Of a stretch of 26,737 bases of DNA, positions 1 through 18,980 are shown piece after piece; position 1 is the stretch's first letter, and every line of letters starts with the position of its first letter. The notes beneath the pieces are model-generated. The model did not search any database and was not told the DNA's origin. It saw only the letters and a list, made by a program, of their open reading frames with translations. Source of the stretch: a virus. Lineage: Duplodnaviria; Heunggongvirae; Uroviricota; Caudoviricetes. The position numbers were made by a program, and so were the translations under genes. The stretch covers positions 1-26,737 of the IMG/VR virus record IMGVR_UViG_3300041955_001975, one strand, 5' to 3'.

Positions 1-876
1 ATGGACTTCCACACCTACACCACGATGCGTGACTGGACTCGGCGGGTATCGCCGGAGGACCGCTTCGCCCAGGACATCGGCCAGTTCTACAAGCGGGCGA
101 TGGACGATGCGATCAAGGTACGCTCCGCGCAATTTTTCGCCCAACTCATCAACGAACGGGACTGGGAAAAGGCCCGGCGGCCCTACTACAACCTGTGGCC
201 GTCGATCATCCCGATGCTCACCCGGCTGGACCTGGACCTCGATTCCGAACTGATCCGGCTCCCATTGCCGGCCCTCTGCGTCCGTCTTCCCAAAGACTCG
301 GCGAAGAACCCGCTCAAGTTCGAGTGGAAGGGCGACGACGTTTCCGTCCGCTGCATTATGATGGGCGACATGAACCAGGGCGAAGGTATTTCCGTGCTGA
401 TCGACGTGGGCGAATTGGTGGACGAGATCGGGGTGCCGGTCTACACCTACCGCAACTTCCCTCGCAAGCCCGGCCTGACCGTCCAACAATCGGTGGCCAG
501 TCTTGGAAGGAATGTGTTTGCCGACCTGGGCATCCAAGTCCCGGATTCCCTGGTCATGGACTGCGTGCGGCTGTGCTGCTCCCTTTGCCTGCTGGAAAAC
601 GATCCCGAGATCATTTCTCCCGATGTCCTGGCCGATGACCGGGCCAAGTACGAGGCCACCAGCGACCAGAAGTTCGTGGACAAGGCTCACCGGCGTGGCA
701 AGGTCGGCTGGGATGTGGGGAAACAAATCGAAGTCATCCCGCACTACAGAAGGCCGCACATGACTCTCGTTTGGACCGGGCACGGGCGGGTGACGCCTCG
801 GGTGGTGCCCAGGCGGGGAAGTGTTGTCCATCGGGAGGCGGTGGAGAAGTTGCCGAGCGGGTTTGGGGGAGGGTGA
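1..876 (+). CDS. hypothetical protein (291 aa, possibly 5'-truncated by window edge)
   Basis: Long ORF convergent on cas9; C-terminal PHYRRPHMTLVWTGHGR resembles His/Arg motifs seen in uncharacterised phage proteins; no family recognised. Confidence 0.7.
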   Translation: MDFHTYTTMRDWTRRVSPEDRFAQDIGQFYKRAMDDAIKVRSAQFFAQLINERDWEKARRPYYNLWPSIIPMLTRLDLDLDSELIRLPLPALCVRLPKDSAKNPLKFEWKGDDVSVRCIMMGDMNQGEGISVLIDVGELVDEIGVPVYTYRNFPRKPGLTVQQSVASLGRNVFADLGIQVPDSLVMDCVRLCCSLCLLENDPEIISPDVLADDRAKYEATSDQKFVDKAHRRGKVGWDVGKQIEVIPHYRRPHMTLVWTGHGRVTPRVVPRRGSVVHREAVEKLPSGFGGG

Positions 877-926
877 ACATGAAGTCCTTGTGCCAGCCGC
901 CTAGATTGCGCCCTCGTAACCCAGGG

Positions 927-3896
927 CTAACGCCAGTCGTGTGAACATCCAGTCGTTCGGGTGGCTCCAACTTCTTCCGCGTCGTTGGCTTCGACTGCCT
1001 CGATGTTCGGCTGCTTTGTTTCTTGTGTTTCTTGGGCGGCTGCAACATTGCCGCTGGCATGGTCGCGGGGAACGCTGTTGCTGAGCTGTTTTGCTTGCTT
1101 GTTGACCACGGCCGCGCACAAGGGGGACCGAAAAACATTCTTGATGTCGCGCAGCGCCGCGGGGGTGAGCGAATTCTTGGATAGGTCCAAGTTCTGCACA
1201 TAGAAGCGGCTGCCGTCGCCTCGCTCGATCACGCATCCTTGCGTCACTCGCTCCACTCGCTCGATGCCTTGGGTCCGGCAATAGTCGCGGAAGGCGGCGA
1301 CCCAGCGAGCAGAGAAGTCGGCCTCCTTCTCCTGTGACCCCAGCGGCCGGCCTGTCACCAGAGGGCTGTCATTCGGCACCTTGACCTTGGGCTCCGTCAC
1401 CTGGAAGATCCGGTTGAGCTTAAAGATCACCAGTTTCTCCTCCAGGACTCCCTTTTCGCACTGGTAGCCCACGTAAAGGCATTGCAGTGACGAGTGTGCG
1501 GCCTGGAATCGTCCTAGCCGTTGTGAATCTGTCTTGCGCGGGACGGTAAAATTGCCGCCAGCTTTGGTCAGCGAGATCCCCATCTGTGGGATCTCGTCGT
1601 TCTTGCCAGCCCGGAAGTCATCCAGCAGTCGCCGGCGATTCAAGTCATTCGGGTGCGTGCCCATCCCCTCGGTGTTGATAGAAGCCCGGAGGTGCTCCAG
1701 AAGTCGGACATCGGCGTGTAGCATGTCTGCCAAGAGATACGTGCGGAGACCGCTGGAAGTGACCTTACGGATGGACTGTTCCAGCATCTTCAGGGCCGGC
1801 TTCTTCTTTCGCTTCTTTTGCTTGCCTGACCCCTCTTCCGGCAGGGCCGTTTCCGCTTCCACTTCGGGCGGGGCCGCCGCCTCCTTGGCCACCAGGGCGA
1901 TCAGATCCTTTAGCTCCTTATGGAACTCCGCGGCGGACGCCTGCTTCTGATCTTTCCCGGTGAGTCTGTTGGTGCCCACGGGGTCCAGTTTGCAGGTGGC
2001 CTGGTTCTTCTTGTTCCAGTTGAAGGAACTCAGCCGCACTCGCACATAACCTCCGGGCAGGAGCGTCTCAAAGCCGGGAATGATCTCCAGGATGGCGTCG
2101 GCAGGCACGGCGGGCCGCTTCTCGAAAAGCAGCGGAGATGCCTTGAGCACCCGTTCCCTCCAGCGGCAGGCGTGTGACTGGCTGACCCGTCGCAGGGGAG
2201 CGCTCCAAGCGCCAAAGGAAGGCACTTTGCAAGCCAGGATAGCGGCGTCAATGGCGTGATTGTAGTCGTCGCCGTGGTCCTTGGCGTACTCGGGCAGCAT
2301 GATGGTGCGGTAAAGGGCTGTAAGACGCCCCGACTGGGCTCGAATCGCACAGGGCTTTCCTGTGCGGGTCTCGATGCACTGGGCGAGGTAGCGGGCCAAC
2401 GGCCGCGGGACCCGTTGGCTGTTGCCGATATGGGTCAGATCGGAGAGGATCATGGCCAGGGCCTGCTCGGCGTCCAAGGCCGAGCCCGCGTGACGCATCC
2501 GATTCAAGAGGCCCTTCTTGGTATCGTGATAGGGGTGCCTGGCGCGGAAGCCGTCGATCTTACGCTTGCCCACGTATTTGCCGTAGGCTTCGTAGGCGTC
2601 GTCGTGGATTGTCATGCCGGCCTCGGCCGCCGTGCGGGAACCCTTCCTTGCGTTGCAGGCGGGACAGGCAGGCACGATGTTCAGGTAGGCGTCGAAGGGG
2701 AATCGACTTTGCGGTAGCAGGTGCTCGACCTCCGTCAGCGGCGACCTCTTTCCGCAGTAGGCGCATCGGCCGTCAAACTCTTTGGTAAGCATTTCCCGCC
2801 GGTCCTGGAAGCCGTAGGCAGGTCCCTGCTGGTAGTGCTTGTAGGCTTCCGCCTCGTTGATCGACTTGTCCTGCTTGCGGTCCGGGTGGTAGCCCCGCAA
2901 CACGTCGAAGGCCACGCGCTCCACGACGATTTCGTCGATTTGGCCGACCAGGGGCAGCACGCGGGCTTCAAGGTAGCGCCACAGGTCGGTGAAGATTTTC
3001 TGCTCGATGCGGCCCACGTCGGCCGGCGAGAAGTCGGTCTTGGTCGGAATCGTCCGCCCCGTGACAACATACTGGATGTAGACATTAGAGTGTTCACAGC
3101 AAAAGCGAGTACGTCCCGCGGATTCCCCCTGAAGTATGTCGCGTATGTTCTTCTCGTAGACGGCCTTGTGCTTCTGAAAGGCCGGCTCCGGGACCAGCGT
3201 GTATAGCGCCTTGAACGGCACCCTCTTGGGCGATGCAAGGGCCCTGTCGATCCACGATTCCAGGGCTTGCCAGAGTTGGGCCGGGGACTCCCGCCGGCGG
3301 ATGATGTCGGTGAGCCAGGCGAAAAGTGCCTGCTGCAACCGTTCGCGCTTGGCATTCTTGGCCCGCCGGACATTGCGGTCACAACCTTCCCAGGCGCATT
3401 TTGACGGCTTGCGGTTCTCGACCCGCATAGGGCGGATTTCGCGGCGAAGGTGCCGGCGGCATACGGCCAGAACCCGCTCCTGATCTTCACTGGCGATGAG
3501 ACGCTTGATCTCCTGGGTCAAGGCGGTTAGAAATTCATCCCGGGAGATAGCAAACGGCATCTCTTTCTGGTCCTGCTCCTGGTCTTCCTTGGCAGGGTGG
3601 CCGAAGCCGCGACCGCTACAATAGCGGAGCAACTCGTCAGCCTGCTTAGACGGCAGACCCAGGCTGAGGAAAGCCGCCCCCAGCCTTTTCAGCCGGCGGC
3701 GTTTCGTCTTCCTCGTTCTGCGCGCCCGTCGAGCCAAGGCGCGGCTGTCCAGGGTCGTTTCGATAGGCTTCCGTTGGACTTCCATCGTGCCGAGGAACCG
3801 CGGGATGTTGCCTTCCGCCGTTTGCTCCACGACGCTGAAACCGATGTACTTTTCGCCGTAGTCGATTCCCAAGCAGAAGGTCATGGTCATCCTCAC
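927..3896 (-). CDS. cas9: compact Cas9 nuclease, type II-D (Cas9d/SMART-I)-like; true start probably ATG 3884 or 3890
   Basis: N-terminal RuvC-I (CLGIDYGEKYIGFSVV), Arg-rich bridge helix (SRALARRARRTRKTKRRRLKRL), REC Cys/His motifs (KCAWEGC ... GRTRFCCEH), RuvC-II (EIVVERVAFD), HNH with CxxC pairs (CAYCGK...EVEHLLPQS...NIVPACPACNARKG), RuvC-III (YNHAIDAAILAC); adjacent anti-repeat and array. Confidence 0.92.
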   Translation of the reverse strand: MRMTMTFCLGIDYGEKYIGFSVVEQTAEGNIPRFLGTMEVQRKPIETTLDSRALARRARRTRKTKRRRLKRLGAAFLSLGLPSKQADELLRYCSGRGFGHPAKEDQEQDQKEMPFAISRDEFLTALTQEIKRLIASEDQERVLAVCRRHLRREIRPMRVENRKPSKCAWEGCDRNVRRAKNAKRERLQQALFAWLTDIIRRRESPAQLWQALESWIDRALASPKRVPFKALYTLVPEPAFQKHKAVYEKNIRDILQGESAGRTRFCCEHSNVYIQYVVTGRTIPTKTDFSPADVGRIEQKIFTDLWRYLEARVLPLVGQIDEIVVERVAFDVLRGYHPDRKQDKSINEAEAYKHYQQGPAYGFQDRREMLTKEFDGRCAYCGKRSPLTEVEHLLPQSRFPFDAYLNIVPACPACNARKGSRTAAEAGMTIHDDAYEAYGKYVGKRKIDGFRARHPYHDTKKGLLNRMRHAGSALDAEQALAMILSDLTHIGNSQRVPRPLARYLAQCIETRTGKPCAIRAQSGRLTALYRTIMLPEYAKDHGDDYNHAIDAAILACKVPSFGAWSAPLRRVSQSHACRWRERVLKASPLLFEKRPAVPADAILEIIPGFETLLPGGYVRVRLSSFNWNKKNQATCKLDPVGTNRLTGKDQKQASAAEFHKELKDLIALVAKEAAAPPEVEAETALPEEGSGKQKKRKKKPALKMLEQSIRKVTSSGLRTYLLADMLHADVRLLEHLRASINTEGMGTHPNDLNRRRLLDDFRAGKNDEIPQMGISLTKAGGNFTVPRKTDSQRLGRFQAAHSSLQCLYVGYQCEKGVLEEKLVIFKLNRIFQVTEPKVKVPNDSPLVTGRPLGSQEKEADFSARWVAAFRDYCRTQGIERVERVTQGCVIERGDGSRFYVQNLDLSKNSLTPAALRDIKNVFRSPLCAAVVNKQAKQLSNSVPRDHASGNVAAAQETQETKQPNIEAVEANDAEEVGATRTTGCSHDWR
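952..1046 (-). CRISPR. degenerate second mini-array (repeat-30 nt spacer-truncated repeat) inside the cas9 3' end
   Basis: 1002-1046 matches the array consensus at 30/36 after removing a 9-nt tandem duplication (tgtttcttg); 952-971 equals repeat positions 1-12 plus 29-36 (gtcgttcgggtg+gctccaac); the gap 972-1001 is exactly 30 nt, the modal spacer length. Confidence 0.72.
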
Positions 3897-3898
3897 TC

Positions 3899-4030
3899 AA
3901 AAGGTCGTTTCAGGACTCACCGAATAAGCCAAGGGAGTTGTGCAGAGCAGGGGTCTGTCCCGACCACTGGTGCGTCCCCGGGCAACGGCTCTTTGTAGTC
4001 AACCGGAAACAAAGCATTCGTTCGTTGTAC
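3899..4030 (-). ncRNA. putative tracrRNA (ends approximate)
   Basis: Anti-repeat at 3992-4020 (+ strand tttgtagtcaaccggaaacaaagcattcg) is complementary to the crRNA repeat over about 23 Watson-Crick pairs with one bulge; followed by a nexus-like CUACAAAGAGCCGU, a GGCUUA-UUCGG-UGAGUC hairpin (3914-3930) and a U4 tract (3899-3902). Confidence 0.8.
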
Positions 4031-4054
4031 GGGTCATGTGCCCCTGCCCATACT

Positions 4055-4082
4055 AAGAGTTGCAAAATCTGGAAAAGTGGTT
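4055..4082 (-). promoter_or_regulatory. bipartite conserved motif copy 1 (AACCACTTTT-CCAGA-TTTTGCAACTCTT), upstream of tracrRNA/cas9
   Basis: Same motif, spacing and strand at 7889, 12569 and 24465. Confidence 0.7.
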
Positions 4083-4162
4083 TTGGCGGAGGGAGATTTT
4101 CTGGGAGGTTCCGCCGCTAGCTCGATGCAAGGACTCATACGGCAGCCTGTTGCGGCGGACAG

Positions 4163-4451
4163 ATTGTTCGGGTGCTTTGTTCCCCGGGCGGCTACAACAA
4201 GCATTTGTTTCCGGCCGCAAACTGGAATACTGTTCGGGTGCTTTGTTTCCCGGGCGGCTACAACTCTACGCGATCAAGCAGAAATTGTTCGGCTGCTTTG
4301 TTTTCCGAGCGGCTACAACTGCTGGATCGTTCGGATCTGTGACTGGTGCGTTGTTCGGGTGCTTTGTTTCCCAGGCGGCTACAACAAAGTGACGAGAGGA
4401 ACAGGCAAGAGTAGTATTGTTCGGGTGCTTTGTCTCCCGGGCGACTGTAAC
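4163..4451 (-). CRISPR. type II CRISPR mini-array, 5 x 36-nt repeats (consensus GTTGTAGCCGCCCGGGAAACAAAGCACCCGAACAAT), spacers 30/19/30/30 nt
   Basis: Repeats at 4163-4198, 4229-4264, 4284-4319, 4350-4385 and 4416-4451; GTTGTAG...AAT termini resemble type II-C repeats; orientation inferred from the GTTGTAG 5' end and tracr complementarity. Confidence 0.95.
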
Positions 4452-4453
4452 AC

Positions 4454-4481
4454 AACTTAGAAACTGCTAGGACTGACGCAA
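4454..4481 (-). promoter_or_regulatory. possible sigma70-like promoter for the array (TTGCGT-16 nt-TAAGTT)
   Basis: Hexamers read on the minus strand directly upstream of the most degenerate repeat; weak consensus match. Confidence 0.3.
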
Positions 4482-4675
4482 TAGACGGCGTACTCGTGGC
4501 CGTATCAGTCGGAACAACAGGTACGACTGTCAGAAAATACTCGCCATAATTCAGACAGATTCCGGTGGGTTCCGGCAGGATTCATAGTTAGCTATCACGG
4601 TTTGTGATCCCTTGGTGTTTGGCTAGAATGTTGTGGGGTTCAACCCGCAGGCGACCATTTTCTCGATCCCCTGCA

Positions 4676-4954
4676 TCAAGGGCGAAGGTAGCGATCCACC
4701 TTGCGGTAAGCAGGCTGTGCTTCAGAATCCTCTTGCATCGGCCCTTGCGCGCCAACCTGCCGGAGCCCGGCCACCGCCCTCTTGTGCCCGTTGACCAGGC
4801 TCTCGTAGGCTTGATCCCGTTGTCGCTCACTGGCGTACCAGCCATTGGAGAACCATTGCTGGAACCAGTTGCCCCAGTATTCGATGCCCCATTTCTTCTT
4901 CCGCGAGGGCATGGCCTTCTTCTTGTGGCGGGGAATCTCGGGGTCGCGGAACAT
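4676..4954 (-). CDS. hypothetical protein (92 aa, Trp-rich)
   Basis: ATG 4954 preceded by RBS-like GAGAGGGAG; MFRDPEIPRH...WGIEYWGNWFQQWFSNGW. Confidence 0.6.
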   Translation of the reverse strand: MFRDPEIPRHKKKAMPSRKKKWGIEYWGNWFQQWFSNGWYASERQRDQAYESLVNGHKRAVAGLRQVGAQGPMQEDSEAQPAYRKVDRYLRP

Positions 4955-5024
4955 GGCTACTCCCTCTCGACGAAGCCGTCCTCTTCGGCCCAGGCTTCCA
5001 GGTGAGGTCGCCGGGTCTCGTCGG

Positions 5025-5456
5025 TCATCGGAAAAGGCCGCCATTGAAGAGCTTGTGCATGGCCCGGCGGGTGATCCTGAAGTAACGCACTGCACCGCCG
5101 AGAACACCGGCACCGAGGGCCAGGCCGAAGCCCTGGGCCAGGGAGGGGCCGTTCGTGTATATGAGCCACATTGCGCCGCCGATGATCCCCAGCAGCACCA
5201 GGACCGTGACGCCGGCCAGCAAGCACTCGGTCAGGACCATGAGGGTCTTCTTGCAAAGGCCCTGCGGGCGGAAGTGGCTCTCGGCCCAGTCGGTCAGGAT
5301 GCTCGTGACCATCGGGCCGTGGTTGCTGTTGTTCAGGGAGAGGGTGGCCGTCCGGCCGCCGAACTCGACATTGAGCCAGGTCCCCTCGGCGTTTTTCGTC
5401 AGTTCCACGCTCGCTTTCGCCGTCTTGGTCTTGGCGTCGATCTTGCTGTCGGTCAC
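5025..5456 (-). CDS. hypothetical membrane protein (two TM segments)
   Basis: Hydrophobic VLTECLLAGVTVLVLLGIIGGAMWLIY and LAQGFGLALGAGVLGGAV; start overlaps the upstream stop. Confidence 0.7.
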   Translation of the reverse strand: MTDSKIDAKTKTAKASVELTKNAEGTWLNVEFGGRTATLSLNNSNHGPMVTSILTDWAESHFRPQGLCKKTLMVLTECLLAGVTVLVLLGIIGGAMWLIYTNGPSLAQGFGLALGAGVLGGAVRYFRITRRAMHKLFNGGLFR

Positions 5457-5980
5457 GTCGTCTCTCCTTGAGATGGCTTCCTTGCCAGGCGGTTGTAGTG
5501 GAGTAGCTTTTCGGCACGTTCGCCGGCGCTAGGCACCTTGGCATCTTGCATCAGTTCAGCGGCCGATTGGTCCGTCGGCCAGGCGTCATCGCCTGCGCGG
5601 CGATAGAGCGACGTGAAGGCGACAGGCATGTCCGGTGGAACCGGATTGGGATTGGTGACGGTAATGACCGGGCCTGGAGCCTCCTTGGCTTGGGAGGCGC
5701 TGGCACAATCGTCAATGCCCTTGCCGACAGTCGGGTCGATTGGGCCGGCCCGCTTCCGGCGAACGATCTTCAGGGCCTCTTCCAGATCGGCCACGAATTG
5801 CTCGGTGTCCGCGTGCATTGTGCCGGGGCCGCCGACCCGGTTAGCGTAATGAACCTCGTCCGGTTCGGCCTTGATGGCGGTGCCGTCCGGCTTGATGATG
5901 GTGCAGAAGCTCCCAGGCATTTCCAACTTGTGGAGGAGGGAGAGCAGGTTTCGACGACTCAGAACGACTTCGCTGGGCAT
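5453..5980 (-). CDS. hypothetical protein (175 aa)
   Basis: ORF with RBS-like AAGGAG upstream, in the co-oriented run. Confidence 0.65.
   Translation of the reverse strand: MPSEVVLSRRNLLSLLHKLEMPGSFCTIIKPDGTAIKAEPDEVHYANRVGGPGTMHADTEQFVADLEEALKIVRRKRAGPIDPTVGKGIDDCASASQAKEAPGPVITVTNPNPVPPDMPVAFTSLYRRAGDDAWPTDQSAAELMQDAKVPSAGERAEKLLHYNRLARKPSQGETT
5680..5710. repeat. 31-nt element, copy 1 (27/31 identical to 26691-26721)
   Basis: cctccttggcttgggaggcgctggcacaatc vs cctcgttggcttgggaggctgcggcacaatc; contains a GCCTC(C)...(G)GAGGC stem. Confidence 0.6.
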
Positions 5981-5999
5981 GGTGCAGCTCCTTGGTCAG

Positions 6000-6068
6000 T
6001 ACAACCAGCGGGAATCGAACCCGCATTGCCGGCTGGAAGCCGGTGTCCTGCCGTTAGACGATGGCTGT
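6000..6068 (-). tRNA. tRNA-like gene with anomalous anticodon arm; identity uncertain (Gly-TCC if read as 4-bp stem + 7-nt loop; Glu-like body)
   Basis: Acceptor ACAGCCA/TGGTTGT, D arm GTCT-AACGGCA-GGAC, anticodon arm CCGGC-TTCCA-GCCGG, T arm GCGGG-TTCGATT-CCCGC; no encoded CCA. Confidence 0.8.
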
Positions 6069-6076
6069 TGTTGGTA

Positions 6077-6307
6077 CTAGCTCGCCGGGGTGGCCGGCGG
6101 CGTGGCCAGGGTGGCGGCGGCGGCGGCTTCGAGCTTGGTGGTGGCCTGCGCGACGGCAGCTTCGGCCGTGGCGACGGTGGGCTCGGCGGCGGTCACGGCC
6201 TTGGCGGCCTCCGTCTTACCGATGCCGATGGCCTTCTTGACGGCTCCAACTCCGTTGCTGATGGCGGTCTCGATCTTCTCTTTGATCTGGTCCAACTTGT
6301 CGGACAT
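6077..6307 (-). CDS. small Ala-rich hypothetical protein (76 aa)
   Basis: ORF with RBS-like GGGAG; amphipathic Ala/Lys/Thr-rich sequence. Confidence 0.6.
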   Translation of the reverse strand: MSDKLDQIKEKIETAISNGVGAVKKAIGIGKTEAAKAVTAAEPTVATAEAAVAQATTKLEAAAAATLATPPATPAS

Positions 6308-6470
6308 GAACGTTACTCCCGAGGGAAACAGGACAGTGTTTCAGTAGTTCATCGGCCCCGGTCTCGCCAGCGTCACTGGTCCCCGGTCACGTCGGCCGTC
6401 TACGGCGGTTTGAGGATTGAGCCTTACGGCAGCCGCGAACTACAACATCCGGCTTGAGTTGCCTGGACGG

Positions 6471-7832
6471 TTAGTTGGGACATTTAGCAGCCCGCGGCTC
6501 GGCCGGCAGAACGCCGGTCGCCCGCAGCAGCAAGAGGTTCATCAAGGTCTCGGTCAGGCTCGCGCCCTTGCCGTCCTTGCCATCGCCGCCGACGATCACG
6601 ACGCCCGGCACCTTGATCCCCGCCAGGGCCTCGGCGACCTTGGCGTCCCGGTCGGCCTTGATCGTGGCGAGAATCCGGTCCTTCTCCGCTAGGCCGCCGC
6701 CCAGTTCGATCTCTTTCTGCTTGGCCTCGGCAGCCGATATGGTCGCCTTCTTGTCGATCTCGGCCGTGTCGGCCTTGATCTGGGCGATCTTCTTGAGGGT
6801 CTCGGCCTCGGCCTGGGCCTTGGAGGCGACTTCGACCTTCTGCTCGGCGGCGGTCACGGCCTGGGTCTTGGTAATCACGGCGACTTCGGCCGCCTGGGTG
6901 GCCTGGATCAGGGCCCGCTCTTTCTTCTGGTTCTCCTCGGCCTTGATTTCGGCGACCTGCCGGAGTCCCTTTTCCGTGACCATGAGCCGCTGTTGGTACT
7001 CTTCCTGCCGCTGGGCCTTGGCTTGCTCGGCCTTCAGGTAGGATTCCTTCTTGGCCGCAAACTGGGCCAAGGTCTGCTCGTCGTACTGGGTCTCGGTGAC
7101 GCTGAATTGAAGGATACCGATCCGGTAGCGGTCCAGAGGAGACGCTTGCACGATGACCGGCTTCCCGTTGTCGCCCAGGACAACCTCCGTCGCCATGACG
7201 TGGGCCTTCTTCTCCGTGGTGATAGGCTTGCCGTCCGGGCCGGGCTGCGGAGTGCTCTCGGAAACGTCTTTCAATTCGACTTCGGTACGCCGCATCTCGA
7301 AGAGGCCCTTGGCAAGCTGCTCCTCGACGACCTGGTTGAACTCGGCCTTGCGGCTGGCCTGGTTCTCGCTGGCGGACATCATCGGGCCCGTGCTCTTGAT
7401 GCAGTTCGTAAGGTGCGAGCGCACGGCGTCCAGGATGTTGGCCGGGTTGGCGTTGAAGTCCTGGTGCATGAGCATACGGTGCTCGTTGTCGGTCGGCAGT
7501 TGGATCTTGACGAAGCTGCTGATGTGGGCCGTGCCGCCGTCGTTGAACGTGACCCGGATCGAGTCGTCCTGCGGGCCGCCCTCTTTTGTGCTCGCCGAGT
7601 AGTAGGCTTGCATGGCACGCGGGTAGGTCCAGATCGTGGCGAACCCCTTGAAGTAGTAGCCCGAGGAGTCGATGATGGAGACCTTGCCGGTGATCGACTG
7701 GCAGACCTGCCAGTTCTGGGAGTCGTTGTGGCCGATCATGCCGGACCAGAGGATGCCGGTGACGATCAGGACGGCCATGACGGCGAGAAGGGCACAGGTG
7801 ATTTTCACCTTTGCGGGAAGAGACAAGGACAT
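6471..7832 (-). CDS. SPFH/band 7 domain membrane protein (453 aa)
   Basis: N-terminal TM helix, SPFH-like core (SIRVTFNDGGTAHISSFVKIQLP...), long Ala/Glu/Lys coiled coil, C-terminal IKVPGVVIVGG typical of this family. Confidence 0.85.
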   Translation of the reverse strand: MSLSLPAKVKITCALLAVMAVLIVTGILWSGMIGHNDSQNWQVCQSITGKVSIIDSSGYYFKGFATIWTYPRAMQAYYSASTKEGGPQDDSIRVTFNDGGTAHISSFVKIQLPTDNEHRMLMHQDFNANPANILDAVRSHLTNCIKSTGPMMSASENQASRKAEFNQVVEEQLAKGLFEMRRTEVELKDVSESTPQPGPDGKPITTEKKAHVMATEVVLGDNGKPVIVQASPLDRYRIGILQFSVTETQYDEQTLAQFAAKKESYLKAEQAKAQRQEEYQQRLMVTEKGLRQVAEIKAEENQKKERALIQATQAAEVAVITKTQAVTAAEQKVEVASKAQAEAETLKKIAQIKADTAEIDKKATISAAEAKQKEIELGGGLAEKDRILATIKADRDAKVAEALAGIKVPGVVIVGGDGKDGKGASLTETLMNLLLLRATGVLPAEPRAAKCPN

Positions 7833-7888
7833 TGGTGTAGCTCCAGAAGGAAACTTGGAATAGGTGCGTCAAGCACCAGGCTCACATA

Positions 7889-7916
7889 AAGAGTTGCGAA
7901 AACTCTCAAACTGGTT
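7889..7916 (-). promoter_or_regulatory. bipartite conserved motif copy 2, upstream of SPFH gene
   Basis: AACCAGTTTG-AGAGT-TTTCGCAACTCTT, 56 nt before the SPFH start. Confidence 0.65.
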
Positions 7917-8212
7917 TTAGCGTTCCTCGCTTTTCTTACGGGCGACGCGCTGCTTGCGCGGTTTGGTGATTTCCGACCGGAGGGCTTCTGCGGTCTGGGC
8001 GATCTCCACCGCTTGCAGATCGGCGGCGCTGGCGGCCTGCCGGGCGTCGATTTGGTCGGCGCGAAGACGAGCGACGACCTCCTGGCTGCTGGCGGCGGTT
8101 CGACGATTTCGCTCACGAATCGGGTGAACCACCGGCTGCGTATCAGAAGCTTGTAGACGAGAAGCCCCAAGAAGACTACGACGAGCGTTGCCAGAACTTC
8201 GATGGTTGCCAT
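7917..8212 (-). pseudogene. probable frameshifted small membrane protein (TM + helical tail)
   Basis: TM N-terminus (MATIEVLATLVVVFLGLLVYKLL) in one frame; helical C-terminus (ASSQEVVARLRADQ...KKSEER) in another; junction near 8095-8100. Confidence 0.5.
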
Positions 8213-8228
8213 CAGCGTGACTCCTGGT

Positions 8229-8765
8229 TCAGATTCTCGGGTTTACGTCCAGCACCTTCCCAAAACGAGTGAAAGATGCCCTGAAGGAGGGCGCTCTTCG
8301 TCCCCAGTACACGAAGCAACAGGACATGGGTGCTCCCTTCTCGACCACCTTGCCGGCGAGCAGGAACTTCAGCCGAGGCACCCGCAAGAAGCAAATACTC
8401 CTTGCTCTTAGAAACACGTTGTCCTGCCAATGGCGCGTGTTGGTTGCCACGGGGATCAGGGCGATGATTTCCGACTCATGTTGCTCGTAGGCATTGCTGC
8501 ACCTCAACAGCCAGTCCTTGATGCTGGTCCCGTTTGCATTCCTGCCGTAGGGCGGGTTGACGTAGATCGTGGGGAAGTTCCAGGTCTCTCGCAGTCCGTC
8601 GTGTTCCGGCAGCTTGTACTCCACTTTCGCTCCGACGAGGGCGTAGTCATTGGAGCACGGGTCAAGAGCAATCCAGCCACCGAAGAAATCCCGGACGACC
8701 TGGACATATTCCGCGGGCGTATTCCAATCCGTCGTCAGTGAGGTGACGTGTCTTCCGGCGGTCAT
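8229..8765 (-). CDS. phage Dam-like DNA N6-adenine methyltransferase
   Basis: WNTP...IALDPCS motif and catalytic YVNPPYG; 178 aa with no obvious TRD. Confidence 0.85.
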   Translation of the reverse strand: MTAGRHVTSLTTDWNTPAEYVQVVRDFFGGWIALDPCSNDYALVGAKVEYKLPEHDGLRETWNFPTIYVNPPYGRNANGTSIKDWLLRCSNAYEQHESEIIALIPVATNTRHWQDNVFLRARSICFLRVPRLKFLLAGKVVEKGAPMSCCFVYWGRRAPSFRASFTRFGKVLDVNPRI

Positions 8766-8805
8766 GCGGTCTTGCCGCCGATCTTGTGGATTGCTCTCAT
8801 TGCCT

Positions 8806-9699
8806 TCACTGCGCCTTTCCCGCGCAGCGGACGCCGATTCGGATAAGGCGGACCACCATTTCTGCGTCCTCCACGGCGGTGTGGGCGACTTCGCCCTTGA
8901 TCCCGGCCCGTTCCATGCAGGTCTTCGAGTCGGGCAGCCTTTCGTCCGTGCCGGGCAGCCAGTAGAAGAGGGTCGGGTCGAGGACGCGGTGGTTCAGCTT
9001 GACCGTCCGCTTGAAACCGGGCAGCCTGTCGAGAAACGGCTTGTCGAAGCTGGCGAAGTTCTTGCCCGCAGGCGTCAAGCTCGTCTTGCCGTCCCAGCCC
9101 TGCGCCCGCAGCCAGGAGCAAAAGCTCTCGGCAACCTCGCCCGGCGACAGGACGGAGTTGTCGCGTGGCCCGGACAAACGTTTCAAGATTTTCGAGTTGA
9201 GGGCCAGGGCGTAGGGCTCGCCGGTGTAGACGGGATGGGCGATGTAGCGGTGGAAGATCGGCAGGGTTTCGAGCATACCGCCGTTGTCATAGATGGCCCC
9301 GATCTCAAGAATCTGGCAGGTCTCGGGGTCAAGGCCAGTCGTCTCCAGGTCGATGGAGACGTAGGGCATCTTGATCTTGGAGGACAGTTCCTTGAGGCCC
9401 TTGCTGGCGTGGCCGTTCCAATGGCACTGGCAACACTCGAAAATTGCTTCGTTCTCTGCCCTCTGCGTGAGCACGGCATGGCATACGGGACAGTACATGA
9501 TGGCCTCGACGATGATGGCGTTATGGGCTGCGAGTACGTCGCGCACCCAGTCTTCGTTCTCGCTGTGAGTAGCCCCGCAGGCACATGGGCCCACCAGCAT
9601 GTCGCACGGCGTACTGCCGTTGAAGCGTCTGAAGGTCCAGTCGGCGGGCCAAGGCACCATGCCGCTGCGCAGATACTTTCGCAGGACTCGTGGGTTCAC
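8806..9699 (-). CDS. DEDDh 3'-5' exonuclease (DnaQ/oligoribonuclease-like) with Cys-rich N-terminal extension
   Basis: ExoI SIDLETTGLD, ExoII GKNFASFD, ExoIII HTAVEDA; GTG start 9699 overlaps the upstream TGA; CPVC and CCQC motifs. Confidence 0.85.
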   Translation of the reverse strand: MNPRVLRKYLRSGMVPWPADWTFRRFNGSTPCDMLVGPCACGATHSENEDWVRDVLAAHNAIIVEAIMYCPVCHAVLTQRAENEAIFECCQCHWNGHASKGLKELSSKIKMPYVSIDLETTGLDPETCQILEIGAIYDNGGMLETLPIFHRYIAHPVYTGEPYALALNSKILKRLSGPRDNSVLSPGEVAESFCSWLRAQGWDGKTSLTPAGKNFASFDKPFLDRLPGFKRTVKLNHRVLDPTLFYWLPGTDERLPDSKTCMERAGIKGEVAHTAVEDAEMVVRLIRIGVRCAGKAQ

Positions 9700-10088
9700 T
9701 TCGGGCCTCTCAAAAGTGTCTTTGCGGCTTTGTAGTCGGCGTCTACTGTGGCGGCGTGCCACTGTACAAAGTCCATTTCGTCCGTGGCGTCGGCCGTTGT
9801 GACCGCTATCAACCGTTGCACAGTCTCCATGTCATGCCGAAGCTGCTCAGCGGATAGAATCGCGTTGATCTGGCCGGTGCCCGGGACAACCGCGGCTTCA
9901 TATTCCACCAGGAAGGAGGCGGCTAGCTCGCGGTAGATGGCGACCAGGATCTTGAGCCTTTCGCTGAGTTGCTTAATGCGGACAAGGTGCCTCTCACTCA
10001 GCCGCACGGTTGCCTGAAAGGTCTCCAGTGCCTTCGTCATTTCCGGCGTGGCAGGTGTCGCGTTAGGGTCGGAGTCCAGGTTGCTCAT
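9696..10088 (-). CDS. hypothetical helical protein
   Basis: ATG 10088 overlapping the upstream stop; helical composition. Confidence 0.6.
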   Translation of the reverse strand: MSNLDSDPNATPATPEMTKALETFQATVRLSERHLVRIKQLSERLKILVAIYRELAASFLVEYEAAVVPGTGQINAILSAEQLRHDMETVQRLIAVTTADATDEMDFVQWHAATVDADYKAAKTLLRGPK

Positions 10089-10432
10089 TCCGTCTTCTCC
10101 TCGGACTCGTCCAGAGGACCGACCTCGGGGTGCGCGACCCCGAAAATCCTCAGTAGGCTTTCCAGGCACGAGGCGACGGCTCCTCGAACCTCTTGCATCT
10201 CGTGGCGCTCGACGTTGCCGTGCTCACAGGCCAGTTCCACGAGAAGTTCCTTGCGGCAAATGTCCCGGTACAAGTCGAGTGCCTGCATGACGCTGGTGGC
10301 CAGTTCGCCGGTGTGCGGCGGCTTCTTCAGAGCCTCGCACTGTCCGCCCCACCAGCCGCACGCGAGACACAAACGGTCCGGCTCAGGCGTTACCTGGAGC
10401 GGCTTGCCGCACTTGGGACAGAATTCGCTCAT
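10085..10432 (-). CDS. hypothetical Zn-ribbon protein
   Basis: CPKC...CLAC motifs at the N-terminus. Confidence 0.7.
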   Translation of the reverse strand: MSEFCPKCGKPLQVTPEPDRLCLACGWWGGQCEALKKPPHTGELATSVMQALDLYRDICRKELLVELACEHGNVERHEMQEVRGAVASCLESLLRIFGVAHPEVGPLDESEEKTE

Positions 10433-10441
10433 GGCGATCTC

Positions 10442-10822
10442 CTACTGGACCGGCCCCATGCCGGGCCCGACGTTGCGGACTAGGTTCACGTCCTGGATGC
10501 CCTTGAAGGTCAGGTTGAACTCGCGGACCGCGCGCTTGAACTCGGGGTCCCCGAAGCGCTGGCGAATCTGCGCCAAGGCCAGTTTCACCTTGTCCTTGGA
10601 GGCTTTGGCCGCCGCACTCCGGCCGCCCATCGTGCCAGCATCGGTCTTGATCTGCTCCCGCAGGGCGGCGAGCTGCGCCTTACCGCGGTCCTTCTGGTTT
10701 CCGACCAGCTTGAGTTGGGCGCGGGCCTCGCGCTGACCGCCGCTGGAGGCCGCCGCCTTGAGGGGCATTACCACGTCGAGTTTCCGGGCTCGGGCAGGGT
10801 TGCTCGCTTTCGCTTTGGCCAT
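10442..10822 (-). CDS. hypothetical basic protein (126 aa)
   Basis: ORF with RBS-like AGGAG, co-oriented. Confidence 0.65.
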   Translation of the reverse strand: MAKAKASNPARARKLDVVMPLKAAASSGGQREARAQLKLVGNQKDRGKAQLAALREQIKTDAGTMGGRSAAAKASKDKVKLALAQIRQRFGDPEFKRAVREFNLTFKGIQDVNLVRNVGPGMGPVQ

Positions 10823-10873
10823 TTTCTGGCTCCTGGTTTAGTGGGTTGCTTGTTTCCGGGCGACCGCGTGAAA

Positions 10874-11266
10874 TCACACGCCTAGCTCCCGGAGGGCTTG
10901 GACTTCGTCTGCCGTGAGCTTCTTGAGCGCTTGCCGCCGGGCTTTGACGAGCCCTTCGTACTCTTTCGCTTCTTGGCGGAACCGAGCGATTGCCTCTTGG
11001 TAGGCTTTGCGGCAGGCTTCCTTCGTCCCTTGGCCGGAGCCTCCACAGGCGGCGCAGGGGACGGTGCGCCGGTCTCGGTTGCCTTCGACCGGGCACGGCG
11101 GGTCTTGCGGGTCGTAGTTCCATCCTCGGCCGGAACAAGCGAGACAGGGCCACTTGTCGGCAGGGTGCAGTCCGAGCCAGTGCTGCTTGGTGGCAAACTC
11201 TTGCAGGCTTCGATAGGGTCGGACGGGCTTGACATGCTTCCATCCGGTGCTGAAGGTGCAAGGCAT
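10874..11266 (-). CDS. DnaJ-type zinc-finger-like protein
   Basis: Two CxxCxGxG motifs (CLACSGRG, CAACGGSG) and a C-terminal helix; purine-rich RBS upstream. Confidence 0.7.
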   Translation of the reverse strand: MPCTFSTGWKHVKPVRPYRSLQEFATKQHWLGLHPADKWPCLACSGRGWNYDPQDPPCPVEGNRDRRTVPCAACGGSGQGTKEACRKAYQEAIARFRQEAKEYEGLVKARRQALKKLTADEVQALRELGV

Positions 11267-11694
11267 TCGTCTTCCTCTTCGTAGCGCGGCGTGACGTATC
11301 GCGTGAGAAGCTCAAAGGTCTTGCGGCTGAGCTTCTTGCGAGCCCACACAGGAATCCCCGTGGGCAGCTTGCCGAAGATTTCCACCAGGCCCCGCACACC
11401 CGTCGCTTCACAGGCTTTGGTCCAGAGCCGCTTGTGGCGTTCGCAAGATTCCCGGGCCTTCGCCAAGACCTTGAAAAGGCGATGGCCGGGGTCCGTGAAG
11501 TCCCACATCGGGAAGTTCTCGCCCTCCTTACCGCCGAAGTTCGGGACGATGATGCGGACGGTCGCCTGATAGCGGCCGGGCATCCGCACGCCGTCGTACT
11601 CCCTGCGCCAGACGATTCGGTATCCGTCTTCGGAGAGCCAGGTCCGCCGGACCTTTCCTTTCTGGCCGCGTTTCTTCTTGCGCGTGAACTCCAT
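10882..11694 (-). CDS. hypothetical protein with Lys/Ser/Pro-rich tail overlapping the next gene
   Basis: Globular-looking N-terminal ~140 aa (MEFTRKKKRG...); tail runs 385 nt over 10874-11266 in another frame. Confidence 0.6.
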   Translation of the reverse strand: MEFTRKKKRGQKGKVRRTWLSEDGYRIVWRREYDGVRMPGRYQATVRIIVPNFGGKEGENFPMWDFTDPGHRLFKVLAKARESCERHKRLWTKACEATGVRGLVEIFGKLPTGIPVWARKKLSRKTFELLTRYVTPRYEEEDECLAPSAPDGSMSSPSDPIEACKSLPPSSTGSDCTLPTSGPVSLVPAEDGTTTRKTRRARSKATETGAPSPAPPVEAPAKGRRKPAAKPTKRQSLGSAKKRKSTKGSSKPGGKRSRSSRQTKSKPSGS

Positions 11695-11833
11695 CACTTG
11701 GGCTCCCCGTGAACACAACCGAACTCGGGACCGGGGATTATCCCCCAGCCCTTGTCGTCTTCAATGCACATGGTTCGCACCTTTCTTAGCGGGCCGGACG
11801 AGCGCCCCGCCAGGGTTTGCTGGAGGCCGGCGA

Positions 11834-12034
11834 TCAGTAGCCCCGGCCGCGATTGGCACGAGGGTGCATCGGCGAGTAGTGAGAGTGAAACGCCGGCAGG
11901 CGCGTCAGCATCTTGTGCGGTTTCTTCTTGGTTCCGCACCTTTTGGGACACCTCTGCGGTCCCGGCTCATTGATGCCGTGGAACACCTCGAACTCAGCTC
12001 CGCACGCAGGGCAACGGTAATCGTAGGTAGGCAA
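11834..12034 (-). CDS. FmdB-family zinc-ribbon protein
   Basis: TTG start after AGGAGGTG; PTYDYRCPACGAEFEVFH...CPKRCG signature. Confidence 0.8.
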   Translation of the reverse strand: MPTYDYRCPACGAEFEVFHGINEPGPQRCPKRCGTKKKPHKMLTRLPAFHSHYSPMHPRANRGRGY

Positions 12035-12044
12035 GGCACACCTC

Positions 12045-12257
12045 CTAGACGATGGGCTCGGTGACCGGTTGGACCACGACACAGTTCTTCAGGTTGCGGA
12101 CGGTGATCCGCCGGCCCTCGGCGTTGAAGCCGGTGATGTGAGCGTCATCGACCTGGGTCACGTTCAGCTTGTTCAGCCACATCGAACTGCGGCGGCGCAC
12201 GGGGTAACAGACCGTGTCGCCGGCCGCAATGGCGCGGCCTAAGAAGTCTCGGCTCAT
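12045..12257 (-). CDS. hypothetical protein (70 aa)
   Basis: DFLGRAIAAGDTVCY, a beta-rich small phage-type ORF; ATGA overlap with the upstream gene. Confidence 0.7.
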   Translation of the reverse strand: MSRDFLGRAIAAGDTVCYPVRRRSSMWLNKLNVTQVDDAHITGFNAEGRRITVRNLKNCVVVQPVTEPIV

Positions 12258-12511
12258 GCGATTCCCTCGGGAACTAAGGACTCGAAACGGGTGATAGACG
12301 ACGGTGCAGGGACCTCGAAGATGTGCGCGTAAGGGGCAGACAGAGCCACCATCGCCTCATCCAAGGCCGCCTTGTAGTTGGTGACATGCTTCAGGCGGGT
12401 CCGCATCTCCCTGCTAGGCCGCCTGCCATGCAGAACCAGGGCAAAGAACTCCGGCCGATACTTGGGGCTCATCTCGTGACGCTCGCAGATCGCATTCAGG
12501 TCAAGACTCAT
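12254..12511 (-). CDS. hypothetical protein (85 aa)
   Basis: RBS AAGGGAG; first gene downstream of motif copy 3. Confidence 0.7.
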   Translation of the reverse strand: MSLDLNAICERHEMSPKYRPEFFALVLHGRRPSREMRTRLKHVTNYKAALDEAMVALSAPYAHIFEVPAPSSITRFESLVPEGIA

Positions 12512-12568
12512 GGTTGCGCTCCCTTGGGGTTAAGTTGCGGGGCAGCCTAGTCCGCGCTCCGCCATACC

Positions 12569-12596
12569 AAGAGTTGCAAAATCTCGAAAACTGGTT
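12569..12596 (-). promoter_or_regulatory. bipartite conserved motif copy 3
   Basis: AACCAGTTTT-CGAGA-TTTTGCAACTCTT, intergenic, 57 nt upstream of the 12511 start. Confidence 0.7.
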
Positions 12597-12602
12597 TTCC
12601 GA

Positions 12603-12944
12603 TCAGCGAATTTTGTTGCGTTCGCCGATCAAGGCGGCCAGCGAGCGGCAGAGAAGGTCCCAGGCGAGCAGTCGCTTCCGCGGGAAACCGAGGATCGTAC
12701 CGTGCCGCCAGGGACGGCCTGCCTTGTCCCGCAGGTCCACGAAGTAGTTGCCTAGGGCAGGTCCGCCTGTGCCAAGGTTGGTGATCGTGCCCGTTGCAAG
12801 GGTCGTCTTGCGGGCTTCACAGCCGCCGGGCCATATTTCAATCGTTACCTTCAGCATTACCGGCACCCTTGCGGATCGTCCGGGTTGTCGGCATCGTGCC
12901 GGCCCGCGACCGAGAAAACGCACCACGAAGAAGAGGCTACCCAA
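12603..12944 (-). CDS. hypothetical protein (start uncertain)
   Basis: MLKVTIEIWPGG...GNYFVDLRDKAGRPW core looks like a real small phage protein. Confidence 0.55.
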   Translation of the reverse strand: MGSLFFVVRFLGRGPARCRQPGRSARVPVMLKVTIEIWPGGCEARKTTLATGTITNLGTGGPALGNYFVDLRDKAGRPWRHGTILGFPRKRLLAWDLLCRSLAALIGERNKIR

Positions 12945-13133
12945 GGACGTTGAAGAGAAGACGAAGACCGTTCAGTTCGGCGGGCAGGGTTGGGGATCAA
13001 GCGGGGTAGGCCGCAAGTTCACGTTCCTCTCTCGGCTCTTGACGCCACCTATGGGGTGGGTGCGCTGAGGGGCATCCCAGCGGAAACAGTTTTATTCAGC
13101 GGTTTCTCGCGCCGTTTAGAATGGGGGGGGATA

Positions 13134-13162
13134 TTGCTTAGCACCCCGCCGTTGGCTAGAAT
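13134..13162 (+). promoter_or_regulatory. sigma70-like promoter for the WG-repeat cassette
   Basis: TTGCTT-17 nt-TAGAAT, 52 nt upstream of ATG 13215. Confidence 0.55.
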
Positions 13163-13214
13163 TGCGGTTATTCCAGGGCTTCGATGGCGTGAACCTGAGC
13201 AGAGGGTGACTGAT

Positions 13215-14873: not shown

Positions 14874-15118
14874 ACGGACGGCCAATAATCGTCGCCACTT
14901 CCCAAACACACCAGTGGCAGATAAGGGCGCGGACACACCAACACCACTCATTGTGCGGTCGCGCCAACAAGAGCGAGGAGCCTCCTAACAGAACATCAGT
15001 TGCCAGCCGCACGGAGCAATGATGGCCCAGAAGGTGGTGGTATCGACAAGTCGAATTCATCCTGCGCTTGGTTATCCCAGGGCTCCGATGGCGTCAACCT
15101 GAACAGAGGGCGACTAAT

Positions 15119-16771: not shown

Positions 16772-16868
16772 GTGCGGATCGGCCTCCTGCCATCGCTTAT
16801 ATGGCGGAGAAAACACTTACCCATTCCAACCTGACATAGGGGGTCGCACGACGGCGACTGTGGTCACA

Positions 16869-16988
16869 ATGAGCCCTGGGATTTTGCTAATCATTTTAGC
16901 AGGGTTAGCTATAGCGATAGCTAAACACTTCATGGAGAAGAGAGACCACTCCGAATCTGAAAGGAAAAGGAACGGCAAGATACGTTAG
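16869..16988 (+). CDS. small single-TM peptide (39 aa)
   Basis: MSPGILLIILAGLAIAIAKHF followed by a charged tail. Confidence 0.4.
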   Translation: MSPGILLIILAGLAIAIAKHFMEKRDHSESERKRNGKIR

Positions 16989-17095
16989 AGGCACAGGTTC
17001 GCATTCGTCAATATCAATTACAGCAGAAGGGTGAATTGAGGCGAGAAGGCGAGTATTCAGGAAGCCGGTCCCTTTACCACGGGTGCATTCCTGGA

Positions 17096-18507: not shown

Positions 18508-18782
18508 TACTTTGTCTCTTTGGACCACGTTGTCTGTCGTTTGCAGTACCGAACGGTCAGATAGGTCCCCAGCCAGTTTCCGAGCCCGTAGGCGACAATG
18601 GCCGCGGCGCACCGTTCGACGACCAACAGGGTTGACACCAGGCCAAGCATGTAAATCAACAAGGCGAGGTGCGCGGCCTGTGCCGCATGACGGTCGCGGA
18701 CGGAGTTCACGCAGAGTGCCCAGAGAATGTCGAAAACGAAGCCACACAGGAACGCCACGGCGACGAGCGAATAGCCGCTCAT
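18507..18782 (-). CDS. small multi-TM hypothetical protein
   Basis: Three hydrophobic stretches (LVAVAFLCGFVFDILWAL; LALLIYMLGLVSTLLVV; IVAYGLGNWLGTYLTV). Confidence 0.65.
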   Translation of the reverse strand: MSGYSLVAVAFLCGFVFDILWALCVNSVRDRHAAQAAHLALLIYMLGLVSTLLVVERCAAAIVAYGLGNWLGTYLTVRYCKRQTTWSKETK

Positions 18783-18940: not shown

Positions 18941-18980
18941 CGGACCCTCCATCCCCCGTGCTTGCTCTCGGTCATGGCGG

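Follow-up and report, generated by a model that had tools for sequence, protein, structure and literature searches.

Type II-D Cas9 (Cas9d) enzymes such as Cas9d-MG34-1, NsCas9d and related structures (PMC9755519, PMC11903963, PMC12339737) work with a trans-activating CRISPR RNA (tracrRNA), contain Zn ribbons and are usually encoded without adaptation genes, which are present only in a few cases (PMC9755519); the 2025 classification defines the II-D subtype with a cas1-cas2-cas4 module (PMC12669027). Cas9d-MG102 enzymes came from Syntrophaceae bins (PMC9755519). Among viruses, the CRISPR-Cas systems of huge phages (Al-Shayeb et al. 2020), Cas9-based type II systems included, have compact arrays with a median of six repeats (PMC7162821), and the Vibrio phage ICP1 is cited there as carrying a complete type I-F system with adaptation genes (Seed et al. 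2013, cited in PMC7162821). Missing adaptation genes are common for both Cas9d loci and phage CRISPR systems and are thus not unusual per se (PMC9755519; PMC7162821). Here, we describe a mini-array, a tracrRNA and a cas9d-like gene in a 26,737-nt stretch of DNA (the window), which comprises positions 1 to 26,737 of the IMG/VR record IMGVR_UViG_3300041955_001975, a provirus record of 113,838 bp. We consider it likely that this locus is a working type II-D-like interference module in the accessory arm of a ~165-kb temperate tailed phage that integrates into a Pirellulales chromosome. The sequence analysis shows how the locus is built, the family that it belongs to, its conserved catalytic residues, the conserved fold of the tracrRNA, the tie to regulation and composition of the phage, and the turnover of spacers.

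Earlier work has described class 2 systems of phages that lack Cas1, Cas2 and Cas4 and have compact arrays (PMC7162821), as well as Cas9d with a tracrRNA (PMC9755519). What is new is the combination of a temperate planctomycete phage with an apparent effector of the II-D branch under a phage promoter. Also new are the definition of a clade of long forms with a tracrRNA family of its own, a fossil array in the 3' end of cas9, and a duplicated tracr segment. With the Cas9d enzymes of known structure (8zq9/9auf, 8w2z, 9lgi, 9k32), the locus shares the split RuvC and HNH catalytic set, Zn-ribbon-like Cys motifs, and a tracrRNA with an adjacent array, usually without adaptation genes in the operon; in contrast to the compact Cas9d, the window Cas9 is ~240 residues longer, shows ~20-25% identity over the aligned core, falls in a separate sister clade and is phage-borne. 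The huge-phage systems likewise have conserved catalytic residues, compact arrays, a proposed targeting of competing phages and no Cas1, Cas2 or Cas4 (PMC7162821; cas4 was not searched by family model here), whereas our locus combines a ~165-kb temperate phage, a putative II-D-branch effector and a phage-specific promoter, with no perfect target found. As with ICP1, as far as it is cited in PMC7162821, the CRISPR system is phage-borne and would serve the phage in conflicts between mobile elements, the differences being that ours is class 2 and has no adaptation genes.

Pfam recognized RRXRR (the RuvC-I/bridge-helix region) and HNH in the window Cas9, and the NCBIfam models ranked CRISPR_Cas9d (107 bits) above IscB (73 bits) and the Cas9 model TIGR01865 (51 bits). 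The closest solved structures by sequence were the Cas9d entries 8zq9/9auf and 8w2z (E ~1e-23), and Foldseek against PDB placed type II-D Cas9s first (9k32, 9lgi, 9k31), followed by SaCas9, Nme1Cas9 and others. An AlphaFold2 model from a 40-sequence alignment had a mean predicted local distance difference test (pLDDT) of 81 and a predicted template modeling score (pTM) of 0.73, with residues 943-989 disordered. D12, E326, H392, N415, H547 and D550 are all present and are invariant or nearly so in this alignment, bearing out the earlier note, which had described both nuclease sites as apparently intact; two Zn-ribbon-like motifs are also conserved (C146, C167, C172, C266, H269, C378, C381, C411 and C414, all present). 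A modest family of ~35 clusters at E<1e-30 emerged when 5.8 billion non-redundant proteins were searched from word seeds and 1.84 billion cluster representatives were searched exhaustively with HMMER; its members are mostly 925-1040 aa long and 31-49% identical and come from Planctomycetota, Desulfobacterota/Syntrophaceae, Chloroflexota and other metagenome-assembled genomes (MAGs), plus one 96% identical copy (contig L009). An exact look-up of the window Cas9 among public assemblies gave no match.

Phylogenetic analysis (FastTree; 701 columns, 56 proteins, IscB-sized proteins as root) placed the window protein in a planctomycete subclade (support 0.97) nested in a 39-member clade of long proteins (940-1040 aa; support 0.98). 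The sister group of this long clade (support 1.0) consists of three compact proteins, and one of these, at 408 bits, lies above the curated Cas9d cut-off. We therefore read the protein as a probable long-form member of the II-D branch, in a tree built without II-A, II-B or II-C sequences. The Cas9d-like identity proposed beforehand is thus consistent with the best family, structure and fold matches and with this sister relationship, and, with the general Cas9 model and other Cas9 structures ranking below Cas9d, the protein is probably not an ordinary II-C Cas9. It had also been called a small Cas9d: the sub-1000-aa length holds (985-989 aa), but the protein is a long form of Cas9d and not a compact one. 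The chromosomal relatives in Planctomycetota and Desulfobacterota/Syntrophaceae MAGs (L010, L011, L040-L059) are 31-49% identical over ~93% of the length, and an array adjoins cas9 at 20 of the 21 related loci. Cas1 appears to adjoin ~4-5 non-planctomycete relatives (3-4 deltaproteobacterial, 1 Nitrospirota; same-contig status as judged from coordinates) and none of the planctomycete ones, which share with our locus the tracrRNA family, small adjacent arrays and the lack of a neighboring cas1.

The anti-repeat of the tracrRNA pairs with repeat positions 2-26 over 12+2+6 bp with an internal bulge, and the scaffold has GGTGAGTCC (3913-3921) at its end, after which comes a U-run, in agreement with the tracrRNA suggested previously at 3899-4025. 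In seven planctomycete relatives, the cas9 strand bears the same blocks, i.e., the anti-repeat, AAAGAGCC, GCACC, GGACAG, CC.GC.CTGC, GGTGAGTCC and the U-run. The consensus fold from nine aligned tracrRNAs contains 28 pairs, 15 of them with a compensatory change; 91% of the alignment cells are paired, compared with 27-45% when the partners are slid by 1-3 columns, and covariation as strong as that observed did not arise in any of 500 column shuffles. The window tracrRNA is without one internal hairpin (alignment columns 113-136). These patterns indicate that the predicted tracrRNA is a member of a conserved, covarying RNA family located beside planctomycete relatives of this Cas9. Rfam returned no match to a tracrRNA family, a tRNA-Gly being its only match, and an anti-repeat scan by duplex energy alone was uninformative in the GC-rich background, its top match being a fossil repeat at 1005-1048. 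Exact tracr and repeat patterns were absent from the JGI metagenome contigs and the IMG/VR sequences searched, which is a weak negative.

Array, tracrRNA and cas9 follow one another in that order on the minus strand (Table 1), confirming that the locus is packed on one strand throughout 927-4451. Cas9 may start at a GTG (3896; 989 aa) or at an ATG (3884; 985 aa), the latter appearing likelier, judging from the GAGGA ribosome-binding site before it and a product that begins with MTFCLGIDYG, the usual RuvC-I start. The frame is intact in the window (989 aa) and in the second assembly (L009; 974 aa). The repeats begin with GTTGTAGCC, which is typical of type II repeats, and the most degenerate one is farthest from cas9. 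Neither Cas1 (PF01867) nor Cas2 (PF09827) had a match at E<=1 across the whole record (cas4 and csn2 were not searched by family model), extending the absence of cas1 and cas2 reported for the window; with no Cas1 or Cas2 match, the record does not display the cas1-cas2-cas4 module of the II-D definition (PMC12669027). Scans for sigma-70 promoters and terminators gave chance-level results only.

Table 1 Features of the cas9d-like locus and its surroundings, in window coordinates.
Feature	Position	Strand	Description
AcrVA2-like gene (291 aa)	1..876	+	Convergent with cas9; faint PF26125 matches in some homologues
cas9d-like gene	927..3896	-	Domain order RuvC-I, Zn-ribbon/REC, RuvC-II, HNH, RuvC-III, WED/PI-like C-terminal part
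Fossil second mini-array	952..1048	-	Last cas9 codons read through: degenerate repeat (9-nt duplication), 31-nt spacer, repeat with 16-nt internal deletion
tracrRNA	~3899..4030	-	Anti-repeat 3997-4022; scaffold AAAGAGCC ... GGACAG ... GGTGAGTCC; U-run 3899-3902
Phage promoter motif	4055..4083	-	AAACCAGTT-N8-TTTTGCAACTCTT (AAACCAsTT-N8-TTTTGCAACTCTT type), directly upstream of tracrRNA and cas9
CRISPR mini-array	4164..4451	-	5 repeats of 35 nt, 4 spacers
Repeats	4417-4451, 4351-4385, 4285-4319, 4230-4264, 4164-4198	-	Consensus GTTGTAGCCGCCCGGGAAACAAAGCACCCGAACAA
Spacers	4386-4416, 4320-4350, 4265-4284, 4199-4229	-	31, 31, 20, 31 nt
Upstream phage operon	4454..5980	-	Reads into array; 175-aa gene 5453-5980, 143-aa gene 5025-5456, open reading frame (ORF) 4676-5113

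Besides the window, near-identical copies of the locus occur in L009 and in a 9.3-Mb Pirellulales MAG, where a 97% identical copy of the phage is split over two contigs, closing C5 and opening C9. Both of these copies are without segment 4386-5016, and their array begins 8 nt past the stop codon of the 143-aa phage gene, indicating that the array closes a phage operon at its 3' end. Two members of this operon, the 175-aa gene and ORF 4676-5113, have homologues in complete related phages. The tracrRNA and the repeat-proximal flank are identical across the three copies. So is the 31-nt spacer of the fossil array, whose first repeat is nearly perfect in both other copies (L009 4525-4564, within a fossil array at 4525-4640; and the MAG copy). 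The part of Cas9 encoded by the fossil array (residues 943-989) is unconserved and predicted to be disordered. In gene order, the planctomycete relatives (tracr, array, cas9) and the deltaproteobacterial ones (cas9, array) differ from the window (array, phage promoter, tracr, cas9, fossil array).

Two further signatures connect the locus to the phage. First, the phage promoter motif upstream of the tracrRNA occurs in 11 copies in the record, every one of them oriented toward downstream genes. In 190 kb of MAG contig C9, six copies were found up to 20.9 kb, i.e., in the phage part, and one at 121.7 kb, which belongs to a second tracr copy; apart from the latter, there was none in 21-121 kb or 122-190 kb. 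IMG/VR yielded no match to the motif. Second, ten palindromic hexamers (AGATCT, CCATGG, CTCGAG, GACGTC, GGATCC, GGCGCC, GTCGAC, TCCGGA, TCGCGA and TGATCA) have been purged from the phage, with 2 occurrences in the 104.6-kb phage core versus 3.0-4.0 per kb in the host flanks. The cas9 locus (877-4500) contains none of them, compared with 11-14 expected (Poisson P <2e-5). In the MAG, the purged domain runs unbroken up to 52.6 kb of C9 and then shifts abruptly to host density, and all 42 kb examined in the second assembly are purged, including a DISARM-like gene set and a tRNA array. This continuity puts cas9 at least 28-38 kb inside a contiguous ~165-kb domain that has the selective history of the phage, and restriction-site purging here maps the prophage extent better than the database provirus call.

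Further support comes from the AcrVA2-like neighbor of cas9, which has a homologue in the complete relative G002 in collinear order, and from the joining of array, tracr and cas9, which is identical in three independent assemblies. The locus is thus probably part of the phage genome, as judged from sequence composition and arrangement, and may be packaged with it. A viral origin of the contig, which the earlier note had left to be checked, is evident from the terminase, portal, major head protein, tape measure and replication genes on the record and from the promoter motif and purge that these share with the locus; the context is a mobile one.

The three copies, 95-97% identical, have 4, 3 and 3 spacers with none in common (ten different spacers), suggesting that the array turns over fast despite the lack of adaptation genes nearby. 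Two spacers from two strains matched, at 24/31 and 26/32 positions, within one 330-bp stretch of the same phage lineage's own arm; this stretch comprises a small gene and its upstream region, paralogous to window 12254-12511. A third spacer showed a 21/31 match in the 146-kb relative G001. The mismatches would presumably spare the resident copy, with perfect targets in unsampled related phages, and these partial matches hint at phage-versus-phage targeting, in line with the use suggested for CRISPR systems of huge phages (PMC7162821). The spacer search that had been called for thus gave partial matches in the same lineage and no full ones: the protospacer patterns of two spacers had no match in IMG/VR, and window spacer 4 had none with <=3 mismatches in 301 genomes of the host's order, the other spacers not having been searched there. 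The host MAG contains at least three Cas1 loci, with repeats unrelated to the phage array. Spacer acquisition in trans is possible but unsupported, exchange of array segments by recombination being a possible alternative. The host contig C1 (L100, L102) itself bears three large arrays with unrelated repeats (42 of 37 nt, 71 of 28-29 nt and 16 of 36 nt).

From these features we infer expression, cleavage, a protospacer adjacent motif (PAM), the targets, the route of spacer gain, and the packaging of the locus into virions. The CRISPR RNA precursor would be transcribed as the tail of the phage operon, and the tracrRNA and cas9 would be driven by one of the promoters of the phage. The tracrRNA would then pair with repeat positions 2-26 and the duplex would load the ~985-aa Cas9d-like nuclease, whose RuvC and HNH sites would cut matching DNA; the cuts made by Cas9d enzymes are staggered. 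Likely targets would be related phages or other mobile elements competing for the host, and new spacers would come from outside the locus, either by acquisition in trans or by exchange of array segments.

A number of observations weigh against such a module. At the protein level, the score of 107 bits with the Cas9d model NF049971 is below the curated cut-off of 375; a member of the long clade (P0009) likewise scores 124 bits and the compact P0081 passes with 408, and we read this model, of the NCBI 'exception' type, as narrow. The tree was built without the II-A, II-B and II-C references mentioned above, and a search of IMG/VR for close or distant Cas9d relatives gave short HNH matches only. 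As for targets, no perfect protospacer was found in the spacer searches, and the two partial ones in the phage lineage lie in the resident prophage and could in principle be due to chance (local E-values 3e-4 and 9e-5, ten queries). Regarding position, cas9 is close to the trimmed edge of the record (0.9-3.9 kb from it) and is the first gene past the last phage motif copy, with strain-variable defence islands beyond, and the complete relatives G001-G003 are without cas9. In the MAG, the cas9 frame is split in three ORFs (C9 21.1-24.07 kb; L084 1106-4081), which is probably a long-read frameshift error but may be real decay, and host-like DNA (C9 52.6-110 kb) lies between the purged domain and the second tracr copy, integrase and attachment (att) site. 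Genes for a P-type ATPase, a phosphoketolase, glycogen enzymes and a sigma-70 factor lie in this stretch, where the palindrome sites number 10-20 per 5 kb. The MAG prophage may therefore have undergone rearrangement or be grounded; as an alternative for this layout, recombination at the tracr segment possibly joined blocks of different origin.

The second promoter-tracr copy (C9 121,632-121,857; L086 9632-9857) is 226 bp long and 95% identical to the first, with two substitutions in the anti-repeat, and the homology stops just after GGTGAGTCCTG, marking the end of the tracr module. Located ~100 kb from cas9, it adjoins a 142-aa ORF (ORF142), a tyrosine integrase (PF00589, 51.7 bits), whose homologue in a complete relative adjoins a tRNA gene, and a tRNA-Lys(CTT), intact at C9 123,832-123,905. 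A 40-nt direct repeat of the 5' half of this tRNA brackets ~239 kb, and the tracr copies form direct repeats around ~100.7 kb beginning at cas9. A pattern search for the 3' half of tRNA-Lys had given no match, the intact tRNA-Lys at C9 123,832 being found later. The tRNA-Lys(CTT) is an integration hot spot: besides the 40-nt copy of its 5' half where host and phage meet on C5, a 45-nt copy of its 3' half (C9 136,450-136,494) bounds a separate 12.6-kb island downstream of the intact gene.

One conceivable though unlikely reading of this duplication is that the promoter-tracr segment is a portable adaptor, with recombination at the 226 bp coupling and uncoupling phage guide RNAs and a Cas9d gene with its cargo blocks. 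The phage would then, with the same low likelihood, hijack a Cas9d supplied in trans, or shuffle whole CRISPR modules via homologous recombination, which would explain the two tracr copies around ~100 kb in the MAG, the unique gene order, and spacer turnover without cas1 and cas2.

We consider it rather unlikely that cas9 lies outside the packaged phage, so that the phage would hold the array and tracrRNA only and cas9 would sit on an island recombined in at the tracr segment; it is then equally doubtful that the phage guide RNAs use a Cas9d from the island or the host. The direct 226-bp copies, at 95% identity, do flank ~100.7 kb that begin exactly at cas9 and reach the neighborhood of ORF142, the integrase and the right attachment site (attR), and removal of this segment would leave a ~138.5-kb phage, near the size of the 146-149 kb relatives and with the same gene order (ORF 4676-like gene, integrase). 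That these relatives are without cas9, and that the promoter motif is absent beyond cas9, fits the same picture. However, the first 28-31 kb of the segment, which include cas9, the AcrVA2-like gene, the variable island and the tRNA array, are purged like the phage core and the DNA is host-like only past 52.6 kb of C9, so that the ~100.7-kb segment is not one homogeneous foreign piece. The array-tracr-cas9 joint, identical in three independent assemblies, and the two substitutions in the anti-repeat of the second tracr copy also speak against such an island.

It is very unlikely that the locus is an ordinary chromosomal planctomycete Cas9d locus abutting a prophage whose edge was called too far out. 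Such an error is conceivable in a record classed as provirus, with ends that are gene-boundary approximations, with cas9 0.9-3.9 kb from the trimmed edge and with defence islands along the left flank, and chromosomal relatives in Planctomycetota likewise have small arrays and no cas1 or cas2. Nevertheless, tracr-cas9 has a phage-specific promoter directly upstream and the array is joined onto a phage operon, the locus is without the purged palindromes (11-14 expected) and the purge runs tens of kb further, and none of the seven planctomycete chromosomal relatives examined has the order array, tracr, cas9, all of them showing tracr, array, cas9. Least probable of all is a decaying relic without present function, as might be read from a spacer shortened to 20 nt, several degenerate repeats, the fossil array absorbed into the 3' end of cas9 and the three ORFs of the MAG cas9, in view of the 989-aa frame with all catalytic residues in the window, the intact 974-aa frame in the second assembly, a tracrRNA identical in three copies, and complete spacer turnover among near-identical genomes, which points to recent activity.

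A phage-borne Cas9d-like module, the reading we prefer, adds a virus-borne example to the II-D Cas9 branch, for which sampling is sparse and which has practical interest in genome editing. The conserved tracr scaffold that goes with the sister clade of 940-1040 aa is enough for single-guide design with ~20 natural orthologues. For its subtype, the protein is not a compact candidate editor. With three near-identical genomes and ten different spacers, the locus also lets spacer turnover in the absence of local adaptation genes be followed in a tractable natural setting, and it shows a route by which a phage can put a CRISPR effector under its own transcription programme.

The phage is a large (~165 kb) temperate tailed phage and its host is a Pirellulales (Planctomycetota) of peat soil. 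Its record encodes a terminase large subunit, portal, major head protein, tape measure and tail fibre-like proteins, as well as a DNA polymerase, primase, helicase, exonucleases, an RNA ligase and many DNA methyltransferases. In the replication and structural modules, it is collinear with three relatives of 146-149 kb (G001-G003), one of which has terminal repeats. The absence of cas9 from these relatives, and of a close relative of the gene from other viral contigs, suggests that the locus is recent, lineage-specific cargo. Because the record bridges the break between C5 and C9, it supports joining the two contigs. The IMG/VR provirus ends sit at gene boundaries, and gene homology and the palindrome purge indicate that the element is at least 31 kb longer on the right and at least 28-38 kb longer on the left. 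To the right of the record end are 31 kb more of small co-oriented genes, some with homologues in a complete relative, and this arm ends at a 40-nt copy of the tRNA-Lys(CTT) 5' half (C5 583,390-583,429), where host genes with high GC content at third codon positions start. To the left of window position 1 are strain-specific islands in two assemblies and then a conserved array of 32-36 tRNA genes.

Other candidates for the integration machinery were rejected. A tRNA-Gly(TCC) at 5999-6068, within the phage operon upstream of the array (the second phage tRNA, a tRNA-Asn, is at ~41.7 kb of the record), was dismissed as an attachment site because it has no repeat and phage genes on both flanks. 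Two small serine recombinases (112-113.8 kb) are Pin-like and ~250-330 aa long, and the tyrosine integrase by tRNA-Lys fits better. The 23 runs considered included none with RNA. Logan contigs of four peat/wetland runs covered 1-20000 at a flat low depth of ~5x, with no usable junction, and did not inform the prophage edge; a contig at ~29x joins 10398-10421 to 6175-6192, separated by 7 nt, but its matches are only 18-24 nt long and lie in GC-rich coding sequence, and it is probably from another organism. In an empty-site comparison with 40 MAG relatives, the flank proteins were multi-copy or on different small contigs.

The AcrVA2-like gene, an anti-CRISPR-like neighbor worth noting at a phage CRISPR locus, belongs to a very widespread family. 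Its close homologues number more than 400, with identities of 60-96% for the 120 listed; some of them lie on Mb-size contigs, and members occur in defence islands, for instance beside Gabija-like and GmrSD genes. The homologue in G002 is 45% identical to the window gene, and IMG/VR yielded no match. At ~7-28 kb of L009 (L014-L016), a class 1 DISARM-like set lies by the AcrVA2-like gene in palindrome-purged DNA and comprises an SNF2 helicase, an Eco57I/MmeI-type methylase, a large helicase, an MZB/DUF1998 protein and a PLD nuclease; in the MAG it is replaced by an island with a DUF499 protein and an SNF2-NOV_C helicase. The tRNA array, located at 28.6-32.9 kb of L009 and 47.7-50.8 kb of C9 in the palindrome-purged accessory arm, covers nearly all amino acids with its 32-36 genes. 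Finally, two paralogous WG_beta_rep genes (627 and 567 aa) on the plus strand at window 12877-17093 form a lower-GC island of 4.2 kb with none of the ten purged palindromes, and its absence from the 97% identical MAG copy suggests a recent insertion.

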